IMG/VR virus record: IMGVR_UViG_3300010049_000009 | Location: 128,001 to 192,000 of that record | Direction: 5' to 3' (one strand) | From: a virus | Lineage: Duplodnaviria; Heunggongvirae; Uroviricota; Caudoviricetes | DNA: 64,000 bases | Part shown: in pieces, positions 1,033 to 29,372 of the stretch | Layout: every line of letters starts with the position of its first letter | Numbering within the stretch: the first letter of the stretch is position 1 | Position numbers and translations under genes: made by a program | The notes under the pieces: model-generated | The model's database searches: none | What the model saw: the letters and a program-made list of their open reading frames with translations, nothing else | Told to the model about the DNA's origin: nothing

Positions 1033-1053
1033 ATATAATAAAATTTGTTTTTT

Positions 1054-1761
1054 ATGTCAAAAGTAACAAAAAAAGTAAATAGGAATGAGTATTTAAGACT
1101 GATGAAGGAATCTGTAACAAGAGAAATTAACTCTATGTTAAATGAATCACTTGATCAAGCACTCAATGAAAGATTGGATGATAAGTTAGGTGCATATTGG
1201 CAAAATGTTAAAACAGGTGTCGGTAATGTTGGAAGAACTATAACAGGGCAGAACACTAAAACAATGGTTGATGCTAATCATTATTCACAACAGAAGGATA
1301 AACAACGTGCTGCCAAAAGTAGTAATAAAAAACTTGTAAAAGTACAAAATACGGTAGGTAAGCGTTTTCAAGCACGAATTGCCCCCCTATTAAATCAACA
1401 CGGTATTGATTCTACTAAAATTTTACAAGCAATGAACACTGCTATTCAACAAAATATGCAGACTGTACAAAATGTTGATATGAACGCTTCAAGAAGAGAT
1501 AAAGAAACCGGTCAAGTTCCGGCGGGAAATAATGCCGGTGGAAATCAACCATCGGGTCAAGGTAATGCACAAGGTGCAAATACCCAACAAAATCAACAAG
1601 GGGGTACAAATCCCGCTGTTACACAGGGTCAACAAAATACAGGTGGAAACCCACCACAAGATGCTAATGCACAAGGTGGAGTTCAACCGGCAGCACCTGC
1701 TGCGCCGGCGACAACACCTGCGCCTGAGGGACAAAACAATCAGAAACCCCCTCAACAATAA
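1054..1761 (+). CDS. hypothetical protein, candidate internal head protein with Q/N/G/P low-complexity tail
   Basis: ORF; late motif; repeated L/I-x-E sites (MLNES, ALNER) near N terminus. Confidence 0.6.
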   Translation: MSKVTKKVNRNEYLRLMKESVTREINSMLNESLDQALNERLDDKLGAYWQNVKTGVGNVGRTITGQNTKTMVDANHYSQQKDKQRAAKSSNKKLVKVQNTVGKRFQARIAPLLNQHGIDSTKILQAMNTAIQQNMQTVQNVDMNASRRDKETGQVPAGNNAGGNQPSGQGNAQGANTQQNQQGGTNPAVTQGQQNTGGNPPQDANAQGGVQPAAPAAPATTPAPEGQNNQKPPQQ

Positions 1762-1769
1762 TTTAGGTT

Positions 1770-2490
1770 AAAAAAAGTATTACCGCTTGTACCTGGTCCA
1801 GCGTTGTACAAACCTAATTCGTGCATCCACGAAAAGTAAAAACTTGTTAAACACCTTTTTGGTAATGTGACGACATTTAGTTAGACCTACTTTGTCGGTA
1901 TAACTCTTTCTCTCACTTGAACACTTCCGAGTGTGGTTATTTCTAACGACTTATTTCTTGAAAGAGTAGTTTGGTTGCCCACTTTCTCTCTCGAATACTT
2001 TTCACACTTCTCGTACCTTGTCAGATAGTTTCCCCTATCCTTTTTCTATCCACATCGGTTATCCCATATCAACAAGGTGATCCACGTATTACCATACGTC
2101 AGTTTTCTAAACTGTTTGGAACGATTTCAAGCCCATTTCTATTTCAATTATTTCTATCACGAGTAGAAATAAGAATTAAACCTCGTGTGTGTCATAATAC
2201 GTTTATACCACCAACATATCCGAGCCAGGTAATATATTTCAAGCAATACAAACATATAACTTCACATAATTGAATTTATCTTTTACTCCATAGATACAGA
2301 ACATTGTTTTGTGTCAAAGGGTTGTTTTAGGCAACCAGCCTCTCCCGCTCAAAGTGTAAATACGTAAACTACTTCGTAAAGGGTTTTAACCCTCACTCCT
2401 GTTTTTATTGAACACACAAAATTAAATTTCTACAATTGTTCAGTCTTTAAACCTTCTTTTATTCACCATACTTGGTAACTTAAAACCCAA
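1770..2490 (-). ncRNA. candidate large structured ncRNA (GOLLD/ROOL-like class)
   Basis: ~700 nt without a credible ORF, less AT-rich than flanks, about ten short hairpins, GNRA-type loops read on the minus strand, U-tract at the 3' end; boundaries approximate. Confidence 0.55.
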
Positions 2491-2499
2491 ACATAGAAA

Positions 2500-2870
2500 A
2501 TAAAACTTTTATAGAAAAACTTTTTATATATTTTTGGAAAATAAACCCAACTTTTTCAAAGAACGTTTTGAAAAACATATTTTTCTGCTAGCTCGAATAA
2601 TATGTTTTCAAGATAAAGTTACAGATAAAATTTTATTCTACCAAATAATTTTCAAAAAAAAAATCATTTTTATCGTTTTCCTCGCGCATACGCGCACGCG
2701 TTCAAATATTAGTTCATCATGATGGACCATCTTAGTATACTTAAAAATAACTAGAAATTAAATATAAAATATAAAAAGAAATAAAGGTTAACTAGTTAGT
2801 TAGATTCAGAATAATATTCTAAAGAGAAAAAATTTTTGAAAAAAACTTTGAAAACTTTGAATTTCTATTA
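2500..2870. other. AT-rich non-coding region, possible replication origin/regulatory region
   Basis: Repeated TTTGAAAA/TTTTCAAA words, isolated CGCGCATACGCGCACGCG (2683-2700), palindrome CATCATGATG (2715-2724). Confidence 0.3.
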
Positions 2871-2877
2871 TCTTTAA

Positions 2878-5136
2878 GTGAAAACAAATAAGAGAAGAAT
2901 GAATCAGGAAAATTTCAGTGTAGAATTAAAAAATCTTATAGATTTTATGACAAATACCCTTGTAAGGGATTATCCAACGTATAGAATTGGGCAATATCAT
3001 TTATTGTACAGTTTACTTGAAAATCAAAAAACACTTTTTACCAAAATTGTTTCAGAAATTGTTACGGATTTTACATTGGAAAAATTACTGAACAACACTC
3101 AACTTCAACTTGAAAAAGTTTCATTAGCGATAATAAATCCTAAAAAGAAAATAGTTTTTGAAAAAGAGGTTGAAGAAATTTTTGACTTATCCGATAAAGA
3201 AAGAGTGTTGGTAGAAGAAAAGGAAATCACCACCTACCATTTACTTATATCAATTTTAAAATCAAATTATAATATTTCTCAATTATTGAAGAAAGCGGGT
3301 GTGAGTTGCGAAAACGTTAAATCCAAAAAAGAAATTATTGACGAAGAAGAAATTATTATCCCAACAAGGTTTCCAAAACAAGGGCAAGGTTTATCTGTTC
3401 TACCCAACGGTGTGTTAATACCAACAACAAAGGGCAATAATAACGCAAAGGGTCTTAGAACGCAAAGTATTAAACAATTTACGACCAATCTGAATTTGGA
3501 ATGTGAACACGGAGTATTTGAAAATAAAATTTTAGGTAGAGATAGCGAAGTTGAACAACTAATCAAAACCATATTGAAAAAAGAAAAAAATAATGTTATT
3601 CTGACAGGGGATAGTGGATGTGGAATAACTTCTATTGTTAATCATTTTGTTTCAAAAATAGTTCAAGGTACTGTGCCCTATCAATTAGTCAACAGAATGG
3701 TATTACAAATAAACATTCAAAGTATGCTTGTTGGAATGGTATATAAGGGAATATTTGAACAACGCACTAGTGATTTAATAAAGGAAATAAAAAGCAACAC
3801 AAATAAATACATTTTGTTCATTGACGATATTAACACGGTTATTCAATCTGATGCAAATAACGAAGTGATTAATTTTATTACCACAATTCTTCAAGACGAC
3901 AGATTAAGAGTAATAGCAACATGTTCTAATCAGTCATACAAAAGTACAGTTGGAAAATTTGCTCATTTAGACAAACGCTTTAACCGAATCAACATAGAAA
4001 AATTAAGTGTTGACGACACTTTTACCGCCTTACTCGAAAATAAAATTGTCTATGAGTGTCATCACAACGTTTATTTTACTCCTAAAATAGTTGCGCAGTG
4101 CGTCTTTCTTTGTAATAGGTATATAACTTCAAAAGTTTTACCTAGTTCCGCAATCGAAATACTTGATATTTTAGGTGCAAATACACAAATTAACAAACAA
4201 GATAAAAGATTAGAAGATTTAGTTGCTCAAAAACAACAATTATTTATCCAAATGTATGAACATCGTGTTCAAGAAAGATTTAAAGAAATGGATGCGATTG
4301 ATGCCAAGTACAACAAACTTCATCAAGAGATAAATGAAATACAAAAAGAACCGGGTGTGATTATTAACATAACCGAAGAAGATTTATTGAAAGTTATTAG
4401 TGAAGTATCCAAAGTACCAATCACAAACATTTCGGTAAATGAAATGAATACGATAAAGGAACTCCCCAACGAACTCAAAAAAGAAATTATCAATCAAGAT
4501 GATGCTGTAAATAGTATTTGTAAATCAATTCAAAAGAGAAAAATAAATATCCGAAACACCAAAAAACCAAACGTTTTTCTATTTGTTGGTCCTAGTGGCG
4601 TAGGAAAAACATTCCTGTCGGAACTTATTGCAAAACATGTTTTTGGTAGCGAAAAAAATATTATCAAACTGAACGGTAGCGAATATTCGGAAGACCACAG
4701 CGTATCAAAAATTCTTGGTGCACCCGCCGGATATATTGGATACAACAACAATGCTTCATTGTCAGAAATCAAAACCAAACCCTTCTCTATTTTACTTTTA
4801 GACGAATTTGAAAAAATGAGTGATAAGGTTATAAACGTTTTTCTTCAAATTTTTGATAAAGGCGAACTACGTGAAAGCGATGGTACTATTTTAGATTTTT
4901 CTAATTCAATCATTATTCTGACAAGTAATTTGGGTAGTCGAAACGCCGAGTCATACAACAAGGTTGGATTTAATACACAAACCAACATTGATAGAGATAA
5001 ACAAGATATTATTGATAAAGAGATAAAAAAGAAGTTATCACCCGAAATACGCAATCGAATAGACGAAATAATACATTTCAACCACCTACAAGAAACCGAC
5101 CTCAAAAATATTATCAATCTTCAATTACAAAATTGA
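2878..5136 (+). CDS. ClpC/ClpA-like Hsp100 AAA+ chaperone, main part (frameshifted near C terminus)
   Basis: Clp N-domain-like repeats (HLLYSLL, HLLISIL), GRDSEV, D2 Walker A GPSGVGKT, GAPAGYIGY, LLDEFEK, IILTSNLG, PEIRNRIDEII; start may be ATG 2899. Confidence 0.85.
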   Translation: MKTNKRRMNQENFSVELKNLIDFMTNTLVRDYPTYRIGQYHLLYSLLENQKTLFTKIVSEIVTDFTLEKLLNNTQLQLEKVSLAIINPKKKIVFEKEVEEIFDLSDKERVLVEEKEITTYHLLISILKSNYNISQLLKKAGVSCENVKSKKEIIDEEEIIIPTRFPKQGQGLSVLPNGVLIPTTKGNNNAKGLRTQSIKQFTTNLNLECEHGVFENKILGRDSEVEQLIKTILKKEKNNVILTGDSGCGITSIVNHFVSKIVQGTVPYQLVNRMVLQINIQSMLVGMVYKGIFEQRTSDLIKEIKSNTNKYILFIDDINTVIQSDANNEVINFITTILQDDRLRVIATCSNQSYKSTVGKFAHLDKRFNRINIEKLSVDDTFTALLENKIVYECHHNVYFTPKIVAQCVFLCNRYITSKVLPSSAIEILDILGANTQINKQDKRLEDLVAQKQQLFIQMYEHRVQERFKEMDAIDAKYNKLHQEINEIQKEPGVIINITEEDLLKVISEVSKVPITNISVNEMNTIKELPNELKKEIINQDDAVNSICKSIQKRKINIRNTKKPNVFLFVGPSGVGKTFLSELIAKHVFGSEKNIIKLNGSEYSEDHSVSKILGAPAGYIGYNNNASLSEIKTKPFSILLLDEFEKMSDKVINVFLQIFDKGELRESDGTILDFSNSIIILTSNLGSRNAESYNKVGFNTQTNIDRDKQDIIDKEIKKKLSPEIRNRIDEIIHFNHLQETDLKNIINLQLQN

Positions 5137-25145: not shown

Positions 25146-28100
25146 TTATACACCTAATGTGAATGTACCAATTCCTGTGTGTCCAACCCAATATATTCTT
25201 CCATTATGTATCAACACATTATTACCCGAAAAATTACCCAAGCCAGCACTACTTGCTTCCATCGATGTGAATTTCAAATTACCTTTTAAATTCAAACTAT
25301 CTGCTGACGAATAATGATTCAAAGTGTTCACACCACTTAATGTTGTCATTTTAGCAAAATTTGGTATAACACCAACAGGGGTTGTGGTTTTCCATCCTTC
25401 ACCACCGATAAAATATAAAATATTATCATGTCCCACACCTGAAATATTTACACCCATTCCAAATATGTCTGCTGAAACACCTGATGTACCACCAATATTT
25501 GAAATTGTGTTGGTGTTTAAATCCATAACATCTAACCTAATATGTGAAAAACTACTAAATGTGGTCTGTATATATAATTTATCTTGATATATAAATAATC
25601 TCACAAATCTTGTGTTTGGTATATTATGTGCAACACTAGTGTATGGTGGTGCGGCAGTTGCAGCGGTTTCACTTGCATAAAACCCACCGGGTATATCTAT
25701 TATTTCAATATGGGTTGAACTGAAACTATATAGTTTATTATTATGAGCAACCATATTAACATTTAACACATTTTGCACCCCCATTACCCTAGAAAATAAA
25801 ACCGTACCACCGTTTATACTTGCCATTCTTATTCTATTATTACCACTTGCTGTTGTTCTTAAAAACATTCTATCATCTGATATTAATATTGCGTTTTGTG
25901 TTCCAGCACCAAATGTTGCACTTGTACTAACATTAACAATGGGGGTATTTGCGTTTGGTGTTGGATCACTCAAATCCACAGTCGCCATATTTGTACTATC
26001 ATTCATTGCTATAAAATACATTTTATCTTTGTAGAAAAAAGTATTAATTCTCCTAGCATCTCCAATAGGGCGACTAAATTGTCTAAAAATTCGTGTATAA
26101 CTGTTTGATATCGGATCATACATTCCTATCGTATGTTGTCTACTACCACCGGATGGTGGATCAACATTAGCTGTAAAAGTATATATTTTTCCATTAATTT
26201 CACCAAACGAAAGTATATTTTCTAATGGTATTCCAGCCAAACCAAATCTACCAATAGTTTCAAATGGTGGTATTTCCATTTCTTGTCCAATTTGAAAAAC
26301 AGTTAATTCTCTTACCAAACCACTTTCTGATTGAGTGTATAAAATTTTACCCTCCCTAACCGATTGTGTGGTATTTGCTGCAATATTTAACAAATTACCG
26401 GATGGTGTAATCCAATTAGGTAGTGCTGATGTGTTAACAGTAAATGGTATATTAACACCACCACTTTGTGATAACACATTAATATCTAATGATTGGGTTG
26501 TTTCGGCAACAGTTTCCACCAAAACACCGTTATTAACCACAAATGTAAATTCGTCAGGTTGTTTTCCGGGTACTAAATCACACGGATATACATAAAATTT
26601 TTTCCATGTTGTGTTTTCAAGTACACTTGTATCTGTTTCTAAATATTCGTGTGAAAAATCATCATAAGAAACCAATGTTAAATTCATAGGATTGCTCACA
26701 TAACCCTTGTTAAAACCGAATACACAATAACCATCAGGTAATTCAATATCTAACCACACCTTATTTGTATCATTATCATAATCCAAAACTTTGGGGAGGC
26801 GATTTACCTTTCCTGTTCCGTTGGGTTGTGCATTAACATAAAATGGTTTTGTGGTTTCACCTTTTATTACTCCAAACGCTTCATTTGTAAAACTACCTAA
26901 TGGGTCTTCTTGAACTACGTGAGAAAAAACAAATGTACCTGTGTTACTTCCCCCAACCCATCTATATAATGTTCGTTGTGGTAATTCATTATAATCGTCT
27001 AAATGATCTTCATCAGCAATAACATATGTGTAATCACCCTCATTTATTCTTTTATACGTTGAGAAATCAAAAACTCTAAGTGCAGCAACAGTTTCAAAGT
27101 TACTACCAATCCATTTTCCACCTATTGCCTCTAATGTTGTAATTCTACCATTGTGTTCTTCTATTGTTTCCTGTAAAGGTGTGAAATCAATGGTGTGTGT
27201 GACGGTTTTTACTTCTTCAACTCTTCCATAACCATCACCTTTTGTTTCTTCAACCATTTTTAATGTTATGGTTGGAGTCCCTTCATCGTAAGTATGTGTT
27301 TGTGTTGAAGTTGGTTGTTGTGTTGTAAATTCTTTTAATGTGGTATCAACAATAAAATTTCCGTGTTCGTCAAGTTTGGTTTTGGGTGCTAAAACATCAC
27401 CCACCAAACTAATATCCATACCTTCCAATTTTACTATTCTGTCTTTCGCATTAGTAAAGTCAATAGTATATGTGGTCGTGCGCACCTCACCAACTCTTCC
27501 TTTTCCGTCTGTTTCGGTTTTATCAACAAAAACCAATTGAAATGTTGGTGTATCATCGCTAAACGCATATTCTGATTCAATAGTCGTTTGTTCTGTATCA
27601 AAGGGTCTTAATCTATTTTCAAGCAATAAATGACCGTTTTCATCAACAGGTATTGTTTCTGACAAAACATCACCTTCCATAGTGATTTCTGTAACAGCAT
27701 TGATATTTACGTGGTGATTATCTTTACTACTTGCTTGAAAACGTGGTTCCCACTCCTCACTATCGGGGGGTAAATTCATTTCAGATGGTATTTCCATACC
27801 ATTGAGATATATGAATAAATTACCATAAGGAACTTCATCTAAATCGTGATAAAGATTGGTAAATGCAACTAACCCCAATCCTAAATCATATTCCCCTGGA
27901 TTTGGTTGATTTAATGTAAATATTATTGGAACACCACCGATAAGTATTTCAACCTTATCATCAGTAAACCCCCTACCAGGATTTGTAATTATAATTGAAT
28001 CAAGTTCACCATCTTCATTTATTGTAGAATATGCGGCAGCACTACCATCACCACCAACAATAGTAACCATTGGTTCACTTGTATAGTGTTCTCCAACACT

Positions 28101-29372
28101 ACCAACCTCAATCGTATCTAAACAAGCATCAAGAATAGCAACAGCCCTTGCACTTCTTCCACCTCCTGTTGGTGCGGCAATTGTAACCGTGGGTGGGTTA
28201 GCAAAAGAATACCCCTTATTTAATTCTATGTTTTCAACCTTAATACGACTTACTGAACCGGTGTTATTTACTATAGAGGTTGCTTCTGCTACAATACCAT
28301 CTGTTTCGGGATCTGAAATTGTAACAATTGGTGGATAAATATTATTATAACCCACCCCACCTTCTATAACATCTATTTCAACAACACTTACTTTTAACGT
28401 TCCTATTGCTGTCGCACCAAAACCACCACCTGAACCAACAAAGTGTGCATCGTGATTTTTAATTTTATTACGATATATTTTAATTGGTGTGTTATTTGCT
28501 ACACCGGGTTTATATAATAAATCGTTAAAATTACCACTATATGCTACTTTAGAAAAAAGGGGTTTATTTTTTAATTCATTGGGTGCGCCTTCATAAGCCT
28601 CCCAATCCGTTGCCTCAATTTGATAATATGTTGGTTGTGTTGTTTTGGGTGAAAATTGTTCAGTGTCTTCAAAATTTATAACTGTTTCCCCATCTTCATT
28701 TTCGGTTATAACTAATATTTTTGGTGTTAATTCTCTACCATTTTGCATTATAAATAATTGTCCTGCACCAAAATCAGGTCTATTGACAAGATAAGCAGGG
28801 CTATTTGGATCAACGTTATCCCAATCAGTTTGTACCTGTAGAAATTGATTTGGATCAGGGATATCGGGTTTGTTATTTATATCTTCCCATTCACCACTGA
28901 ACGCCACTGATGCTAAACTTATATTATTTGTTTGATCATCAATTTTATTTATTGTTATTTCAGATGCTTTTCCACCCTTATCAATAATTTTTATAACTCC
29001 ATTAGGTAATTTTAAATTAATAGTTTGTTCGTTAGATTGATTAAGACTAAAACTTGATATTAAAGGTGCATTAGGTTTAACAAAGGGTCTATTATTAGAT
29101 TCGTCATTACTAAGTTCCATTCTTATAGTAATGGTTGGATCATTTGCACCACCTACGTCATCACCAATCAATTCTCTTATTTTTTCTACTATGAAAGTAT
29201 CGTTTATCCTAATAAGCCTGTTGTTGCCATCAGGAGAAACTGATATAATAACACCACCACCCTCTACCGGGATAAGAAAACACGAATTTATTAAATCCCT
29301 ATAATCATCTTGTGAAGGTATATCACCTGCTCTAAAGTAGTTTATTAATGTAGTTTTATTTACCACAGACAT
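25146..29372 (-). CDS. tail fibre/receptor-binding protein (1408 aa)
   Basis: F..GD.P...DY.DLI.S N terminus, VAFSG.W.D...KP fibre repeats, GxGYxxxPxVxI repeats, BACON-like domain, C-terminal beta-propeller-like region; late motif 29390-29397. Confidence 0.75.
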   Translation of the reverse strand: MSVVNKTTLINYFRAGDIPSQDDYRDLINSCFLIPVEGGGVIISVSPDGNNRLIRINDTFIVEKIRELIGDDVGGANDPTITIRMELSNDESNNRPFVKPNAPLISSFSLNQSNEQTINLKLPNGVIKIIDKGGKASEITINKIDDQTNNISLASVAFSGEWEDINNKPDIPDPNQFLQVQTDWDNVDPNSPAYLVNRPDFGAGQLFIMQNGRELTPKILVITENEDGETVINFEDTEQFSPKTTQPTYYQIEATDWEAYEGAPNELKNKPLFSKVAYSGNFNDLLYKPGVANNTPIKIYRNKIKNHDAHFVGSGGGFGATAIGTLKVSVVEIDVIEGGVGYNNIYPPIVTISDPETDGIVAEATSIVNNTGSVSRIKVENIELNKGYSFANPPTVTIAAPTGGGRSARAVAILDACLDTIEVGSVGEHYTSEPMVTIVGGDGSAAAYSTINEDGELDSIIITNPGRGFTDDKVEILIGGVPIIFTLNQPNPGEYDLGLGLVAFTNLYHDLDEVPYGNLFIYLNGMEIPSEMNLPPDSEEWEPRFQASSKDNHHVNINAVTEITMEGDVLSETIPVDENGHLLLENRLRPFDTEQTTIESEYAFSDDTPTFQLVFVDKTETDGKGRVGEVRTTTYTIDFTNAKDRIVKLEGMDISLVGDVLAPKTKLDEHGNFIVDTTLKEFTTQQPTSTQTHTYDEGTPTITLKMVEETKGDGYGRVEEVKTVTHTIDFTPLQETIEEHNGRITTLEAIGGKWIGSNFETVAALRVFDFSTYKRINEGDYTYVIADEDHLDDYNELPQRTLYRWVGGSNTGTFVFSHVVQEDPLGSFTNEAFGVIKGETTKPFYVNAQPNGTGKVNRLPKVLDYDNDTNKVWLDIELPDGYCVFGFNKGYVSNPMNLTLVSYDDFSHEYLETDTSVLENTTWKKFYVYPCDLVPGKQPDEFTFVVNNGVLVETVAETTQSLDINVLSQSGGVNIPFTVNTSALPNWITPSGNLLNIAANTTQSVREGKILYTQSESGLVRELTVFQIGQEMEIPPFETIGRFGLAGIPLENILSFGEINGKIYTFTANVDPPSGGSRQHTIGMYDPISNSYTRIFRQFSRPIGDARRINTFFYKDKMYFIAMNDSTNMATVDLSDPTPNANTPIVNVSTSATFGAGTQNAILISDDRMFLRTTASGNNRIRMASINGGTVLFSRVMGVQNVLNVNMVAHNNKLYSFSSTHIEIIDIPGGFYASETAATAAPPYTSVAHNIPNTRFVRLFIYQDKLYIQTTFSSFSHIRLDVMDLNTNTISNIGGTSGVSADIFGMGVNISGVGHDNILYFIGGEGWKTTTPVGVIPNFAKMTTLSGVNTLNHYSSADSLNLKGNLKFTSMEASSAGLGNFSGNNVLIHNGRIYWVGHTGIGTFTLGV

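Follow-up and report, generated by a model that had tools for sequence, protein, structure and literature searches.

Comparative analysis of the window (the whole 64,000-nt stretch of viral DNA examined here) indicates that the segment 1766–2495 is a conserved non-coding element that likely encodes, on the minus strand, a stable RNA of ~720 nt. The reading we favor, to which we give a probability of about one half, is that this RNA is related to GOLLD, although highly diverged, and that it would form an oligomer or cage made of RNA alone. The element is conserved above the neutral level, contains compensated base pairs, follows a leader word and carries an ordered GOLLD-like skeleton. It appears to be a real, rare and large structured phage RNA without Rfam detection, most likely a rearranged GOLLD-like variant and possibly a new class.

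The window corresponds to C1:128001-192000 of a complete 367,155-bp jumbo phage record with direct terminal repeats, which encodes a T4-like major head protein and baseplate genes. Nineteen tRNAs were called in this genome, the nearest of them ~60 kb from the element, and the phage's own tmRNA was identified at L286:10673-11124 on the minus strand (C1:69173-69624; 61 bits with Rfam, missed by ARAGORN). The element sits in a 1,116-nt gap (1762-2877) between a convergent gene and a divergent ClpB-like gene, in a locus with the following features.

1045–1761, plus strand: convergent gene whose C-terminus is of low complexity; it stops 5 nt from the 3′ end of the RNA, has a late-type promoter word at 1026 and matches no PHROG.
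1766–2495, minus strand: predicted RNA body, ~720 nt, or ~690 nt if it starts at the closing stem at 2450; both ends are predicted.
1971–2273, plus strand: 100-aa shadow ORF, not a gene; TTG start, no PHROG, frame not conserved.
2554–2564, minus strand: boxA-like leader word, 11 nt, ~60 nt upstream of the RNA and behind a 10-bp hairpin.
2572–2608, minus strand: the 10-bp leader hairpin just before the boxA-like word, as read from the sequence.
2605–2630, minus strand: conserved AT-rich block, candidate promoter; 80% identity to the relative over 2581-2630.
2660–2880, no strand: AT-rich block at the strand switch, containing a CGCG-rich word (2683-2700) and the lowest point of the cumulative GC skew of the genome (~2750); partly conserved in the relative.
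2878–5136, plus strand: divergent ClpB-like AAA+ gene (phrog_4871, E 1e-138).

Several other observations were made in this genome. The block at 2660-2880 (C1:130660-130880) is the main gene-strand switch and a candidate replication origin. A two-part early-promoter-like motif forms a dense run at C1:333500-351300 (~30 copies seen) with a recurring 14-nt palindrome nearby, and a second, late-type promoter motif is 31-fold enriched upstream of ORFs. The minus-strand gene at 25146-29372 of the window encodes a protein of 1,408 aa that contains repeated segments and is probably an adhesin or tail fibre.

Using the ClpB-like protein as query yielded one relative (L001, 68% identical), which carries the same element beside the same gene. 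The RNA body aligns with L001:377-1180 at 67% identity overall, and four-fold sites are 48% identical (10,496 sites in 131 orthologue pairs with a median amino-acid identity of 65%). Identity reaches 78% in 1772-1990, 83% in 2080-2145 and 84% in 2400-2450, whereas the block 1990-2080 is 44% identical, compared with 48% at four-fold sites. Base pairs predicted from one sequence alone and then scored in the other showed more compensation than the null in all eight minus-strand tests (p 0.0003–0.017) and in two of eight plus-strand tests (p < 0.05), the null being generated by permuting substitutions within well-aligned columns (395/823); with the changed columns fixed in place, the excess fell short of significance in most tests. 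The 22 helices assembled by hand contain 112 pairs, among which 91 are unchanged, 6 changed on one side, 15 compensated and none broken, a count that applies to helices chosen to fit both sequences, some of them mutually exclusive, and that leaves out two mis-registered rows of 24 (8 pairs, 6 broken). The most telling single feature is a predicted 7-nt pair between 2094-2088 and 1866-1860, for which the relative carries a matching one-base insertion on both sides with complementarity kept; each word of the pair occurs once in its RNA. All comparative evidence on the RNA comes from two sequences, a level below R-scape-grade covariation.

The only ORF that crosses the RNA region is the 100-aa TTG ORF at 1971-2273. 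A search for a conserved protein gave, as the best BLASTP segment to the relative's overlapping ORF, 9 aa at E 0.038, and the alignment of the two phages across this ORF contains indels that are not multiples of three. The description of the region as non-coding in the first-pass annotation thus holds against the test of a conserved reading frame and protein, and its further statement that this is the longest ORF-free stretch in the window is correct if the TTG ORF is discounted (gap 1762-2877) and incorrect otherwise. Conservation above silent sites, compensatory changes, a non-conserved ORF and a stable-RNA leader word together support the proposed large structured minus-strand ncRNA, and we regard the element with high confidence as a real structured RNA gene.

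The same data weigh on a reading that we consider improbable, in which the region acts on the flanking genes, be it as a regulatory leader, an antisense RNA or a terminator, or is a relic under weak constraint. Such a role would be consistent with an RNA 3′ end that abuts the stop of the convergent gene, with ordinary local folding z-scores and with an AT-rich upstream block that is as identical overall (67%) as the RNA body. However, no gene follows on the strand of the RNA, the RNA does not overlap the convergent ORF, the long-range pairs are compensated, and a BLAST search of the genome revealed no notable complement at any other place.

The predicted structured RNA can be divided into the following parts, listed from its 5′ end.

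2486–2491, minus strand: 5′ strand of a 6-bp long-range pair with 2120-2115, the only possible upstream partner in both RNAs; 1 compensatory change.
2444–2450, minus strand: 5′ side of the stem that closes on the U-rich 3′ end (1774-1768); it has 7 bp, with compensatory changes in 2 of them and a one-sided change in 1.
2299–2441, minus strand: 5′ domain, a long interrupted stem around a variable multi-hairpin loop; 3 compensatory changes, helices 2441/2299, 2420/2308, 2411/2314 and 2394/2379 kept.
2158–2187, minus strand: hairpin whose loop could pair with the internal loop 2432-2426; 2 compensatory changes in the stem, 7-bp loop pairing invariant.
2084–2134, minus strand: start of the GOLLD-like core, with an A-rich word, a 6-nt pseudoknot strand (2120-2115), a stem strand, a 5-nt pseudoknot strand (2101-2097) and a kissing loop (2094-2088); descriptor match.
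1990–2083, minus strand: variable hairpin segment; 26 nt longer in the relative, 44% identity.
1772–1992, minus strand: conserved 3′ core with a GNRA hairpin, more hairpins, the pseudoknot partner 1872-1868, the kissing partner 1866-1860 and terminal stems; 78% identity.

Six compensatory changes fall in helices of the 3′ core at 1992, 1905, 1877, 1833 and 1813. The minus-strand hairpins reported in the first-pass annotation were recovered in place (nine of nine strings checked), and the terminal stem that it placed near 1770 lies at 1813-1785. Conservation of these hairpins is mixed: those at 2380, 2100, 2085, 1970 (GNRA loop), 1921 and 1818, together with the terminal stem, are kept in the relative. 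The 2148 hairpin is broken there and is replaced by a 2187/2158 helix with two compensatory changes, and the 2024 and 2320 hairpins fall in variable segments. Hairpin density is not beyond chance either for the whole region (minus-strand z = -2.15, plus-strand z = -2.80, each from 20 shuffles) or in 120-nt windows, of which one of the 11 inside the RNA has a minus-strand z below -3, a value reached on the better strand by 10.7% of random genome windows (n = 150). The minus strand is accordingly favored by covariation and the leader word, with no support from folding z-scores. A U-rich 3′ end is present after the terminal stem as proposed, but it more likely represents the 3′ strand of the closing stem with 2450-2444 than a terminator, because the relative has only four U there.

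The leader word at 2554-2564, which we call boxA-like, occurs four times in the phage genome (1.5 expected), and three of these copies lie ahead of a tRNA cluster, the tmRNA and this RNA. Three of four copies in the two records of the relative are likewise ahead of the homologue, the tmRNA and a tRNA cluster, and the same word precedes two GOLLD genes (L377 and L378). Across 56 further related records the word is not enriched overall (24 matches versus 24 for the reversed control); contexts were read for the 24 matches of the word itself, and eight of these are ahead of or among stable-RNA genes. Among 30 bacterial loci examined, two have the word in the 16S-23S spacer or directly before tmRNA. 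We read the word as a putative boxA-like antitermination signal; it could instead be a processing or start signal. The conserved AT-rich block 2605-2630 was compared with both phage promoter motifs and matches neither. A leader word common to tRNA, tmRNA and GOLLD genes suggests that these jumbo phages use host rRNA-type antitermination for their stable RNAs, and it offers a simple handle for finding more unannotated RNAs.

Further elements were observed in phage tRNA regions. Downstream of the leader word in L392 and L401, tRNA genes appear to be split by introns without an Rfam intron match at E ≤ 0.05, which we take to be group-I-like from inspection by eye against the consensus. Sub-threshold matches to YrlA (Y-RNA-like; L410:1589-1718, minus strand) and to an HDV-like ribozyme (L406:1376-1448, plus strand) lie inside phage tRNA clusters.

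The sequence upstream of the leader raises another alternative, namely that the element is an origin-associated RNA (primer or R-loop former) or a DNA structure for phage replication, given that the cumulative GC-skew minimum and a rare CGCG-rich word are found 200-250 nt upstream in a block that is partly conserved. The skew, however, turns where the gene strand switches, and its minimum is not near ClpB in three relatives. Moreover, the RNA would point away from the 2660-2880 block, and its G.U pairs and leader word point to a stable RNA, which makes a function in replication unlikely.

The Rfam scan proposed in the first-pass annotation was performed, and no family reaches its cut-off in the window, with only sub-threshold noise at E ≤ 10. 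At the same E-value, neither the GOLLD 3′-domain model (RF02032, cut-off 150 bits) nor the ROOL model (RF03087, cut-off 99.1 bits) matches anything in the phage record or the record of the relative; GOLLD controls score 75-307 bits and the ROOL positive control pMP118 scores 130 bits. An AT-rich segment shared with the ROOL control was judged to be chance (pairwise z ~2). GOLLD was detected in four of 76 other records, with two matches above the cut-off at ~300 bits and two diverged ones at 75-86 bits, and three of the four GOLLD-bearing records came from a capsid-protein search. By this model, the GOLLD family is present among related jumbo phages and absent from this complete genome. By the Rfam models, the RNA is not a member of GOLLD or ROOL; the kinship raised in the first-pass annotation nevertheless appears partly correct, because the 3′ half of the RNA has the ordered GOLLD-core skeleton.

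The canonical GOLLDs at L377:1100-1910 and L378:1090-1908 (both plus strand) occur in capsid-related jumbo phage contigs, 4-6 kb from a ClpB-like gene; each is located behind the boxA-like word and one abuts a tmRNA. The diverged GOLLDs at L379:1501-1922 and L380:1501-1922 (both minus strand; 75-86 bits, below the Rfam cut-off) have cores that are 91% alike, and downstream of each is a tRNA whose anticodon arm contains an insert of 54-63 nt.

Other known families were also considered. For tmRNA, ARAGORN reports none in the window, and tRNA-like ends and a tag ORF were not found. A ribozyme that stands alone, or an intron derivative without an ORF (group I, group II or RNase P-like), is the least probable of the readings weighed here. 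The size and pseudoknots of the RNA would fit, and Rfam silence on introns is not proof, since Rfam missed the group-I-like introns in the tRNAs of a related phage (L392). On the other hand, the RNA region has no Rfam match to group I introns, group II introns or RNase P RNA, no gene is interrupted, and the genome has no reverse transcriptase; inspection by eye, against consensus features, found neither the group I core elements in order, nor group II domain V, nor the P4 words of RNase P.

The GOLLD-like skeleton common to this RNA and to GOLLDs begins with an A-rich word, after which come, in order, a 6-nt strand with a distant upstream partner, a stem strand and a 5-nt strand. The complement of the 5-nt strand is found 168-263 nt downstream, with a conserved triplet and a ~100-nt tail behind it. 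In each of the six RNAs compared, an upstream partner exists for the 6-nt strand, and in five of them it is unique. Two pseudoknots flanking the closing stem were found, post hoc, in the fixed GOLLD order, the first pair being compensated and the second invariant. A descriptor of this core gave six matches in 1.72 Mb of phage DNA on both strands, namely five to GOLLD (four distinct) and one to the RNA in the window; a single base kept it from matching the relative, and among 5,000 shuffles it matched 1 and 5. When relaxed to include the relative, it produced 19 background rows in 3.0 Mb, and ~71 when looser still, corresponding to a background rate of ~0.002-0.009 per 736 nt. All these figures overstate significance, as the descriptor was hand-made after both RNAs had been seen. 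The long closing stem of GOLLD type is 5-6 bp here, invariant, and has a stability of -3.1 to -3.7 kcal/mol, compared with -6 to -11 in GOLLD. This weak stem is in competition with the 2114, 2099 and 1905 hairpins, and two of these three have a compensatory change. Among six GOLLD hallmark words (first long hairpin, GNRA loops, terminal hairpin), four are absent from both RNAs and present in L377 and L378, and the other two occur once each.

No significant profile match was obtained between this RNA and four GOLLDs, and the two GOLLD subgroups likewise fail to align with each other by sequence. The two-sequence GOLLD models R2 and R3 are silent on this RNA and also miss the other GOLLD subgroup. 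Because these methods leave even the two GOLLD subgroups unlinked, their silence neither supports nor refutes kinship.

These results leave a tentative place for an independent new class of stable structured RNA whose likeness to the GOLLD core arose by chance or convergence. The lack of Rfam and significant profile matches agrees with such an origin, as do a 5′ domain of its own, an end-closing stem and a kissing pair without GOLLD counterparts, and the conflict of some compensated hairpins with the GOLLD-type fold. What argues for kinship instead is the ordered skeleton common to four GOLLDs, set against the low background rate of the relaxed descriptor, as well as a leader and a size that are the same as in GOLLDs of related phages; the failure of GOLLD subgroups to align mutually also counts against separating this RNA by sequence. 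Such a class would consist of ornate phage RNAs of large size, separate from GOLLD, ROOL and OLE. It would have a 5′ domain of its own and an indel-compensated kissing pair, would build another kind of RNA-only cage, and would be expressed from an rRNA-type antitermination leader that jumbo phages had captured; the captured leader would then be a search handle for further hidden large RNAs.

Searches for further homologues returned only the one relative. Five DNA patterns searched in viral contigs found it alone, and one DNA pattern in metagenomes gave 12 matches, one of which was the same relative, with no further homologue. None was found by blastn in phages and plasmids or by BLAST over 53 records, and blastn matches in three named phages were dropped as chance. 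The two-sequence model R1 identified no further homologue over 74 records plus 98 and 83 sources, a result that is weak for distant kin because two-sequence GOLLD models missed the other GOLLD subgroup. In 401 bacterial genomes there were five short matches of 25-53 nt, and among 29 other ClpB loci the ORF-free gap in front never exceeds ~530 nt. Long ORF-poor stretches that may hold further RNAs were seen in related jumbo phages at G014 C1:178843-180989, which lacks any tRNA call, in other gaps, and at G012 C1:232591-234265. This RNA is not described in the literature covered, which included the text of bioRxiv 10.64898/2026.10.21.760802; variants may be present outside this scope, in subscription papers, in bioRxiv supplements or in the large alignment files of PMC12286853.

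If the GOLLD-related reading is correct, the host RNA polymerase would start near 2600 and transcribe leftwards, and the boxA-like leader would recruit Nus antitermination factors, as it may also do for the tRNA and tmRNA units of the phage. The transcript would be trimmed to ~700 nt and fold, with its ends joined, into a 5′ domain and a pseudoknotted 3′ core, the 5′ domain occupying the place where GOLLD has a variable linker. Both GOLLD and ROOL are reported to build cages of RNA alone in which kissing loops provide the contacts (PMC12286853), and the isolated GOLLD 3′ domain is reported to oligomerise or form a cage (PMC12990946). By analogy, this RNA is expected to form oligomers held by loop-loop pairs. 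One such pair might join 2094-2088 of one copy to 1866-1860 of another, so that a cage is likely. The weakest step is the last, in which the cage might store or shield tRNA or translation components in lytic growth, the role conceivably played by canonical GOLLD in related phages; it draws on hypotheses in PMC12286853 and PMC12990946.

Few large ornate RNAs are known from phages. A core of GOLLD type with both pseudoknots retained and the periphery wholly swapped would show which parts of a cage are essential, and kinship with GOLLD would extend the family well past the reach of the Rfam model. If unrelated to GOLLD, the RNA would represent a new class and an immediate cryo-EM target.

Similar to GOLLD, this RNA is phage-borne and 700-800 nt in length, has its core elements in the same order, and follows a leader word identical to that of GOLLDs in related phages. 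It differs in that its first pseudoknot partner lies 371-417 nt upstream (67-83 nt in GOLLD), the GOLLD 5′ domain is missing and a different 350-nt domain takes the position of the variable linker of GOLLD, three hairpins lack their hallmark words, and there is no model score. It is also not beside tRNAs, near which GOLLD is described in the literature as "often", not always, located. ROOL resembles it in being large and phage-associated with joined 5′ and 3′ ends, several pseudoknots and kissing loops, as described in PMC5737381 and PMC12286853; this RNA is longer than the 581-nt ROOL mean and gives no score with the ROOL model. The leader, finally, resembles the boxB-boxA layout of rrn-type leaders, in which, according to PMC10250234, a hairpin and then a short conserved word precede stable-RNA genes, and differs from it in being phage-encoded.
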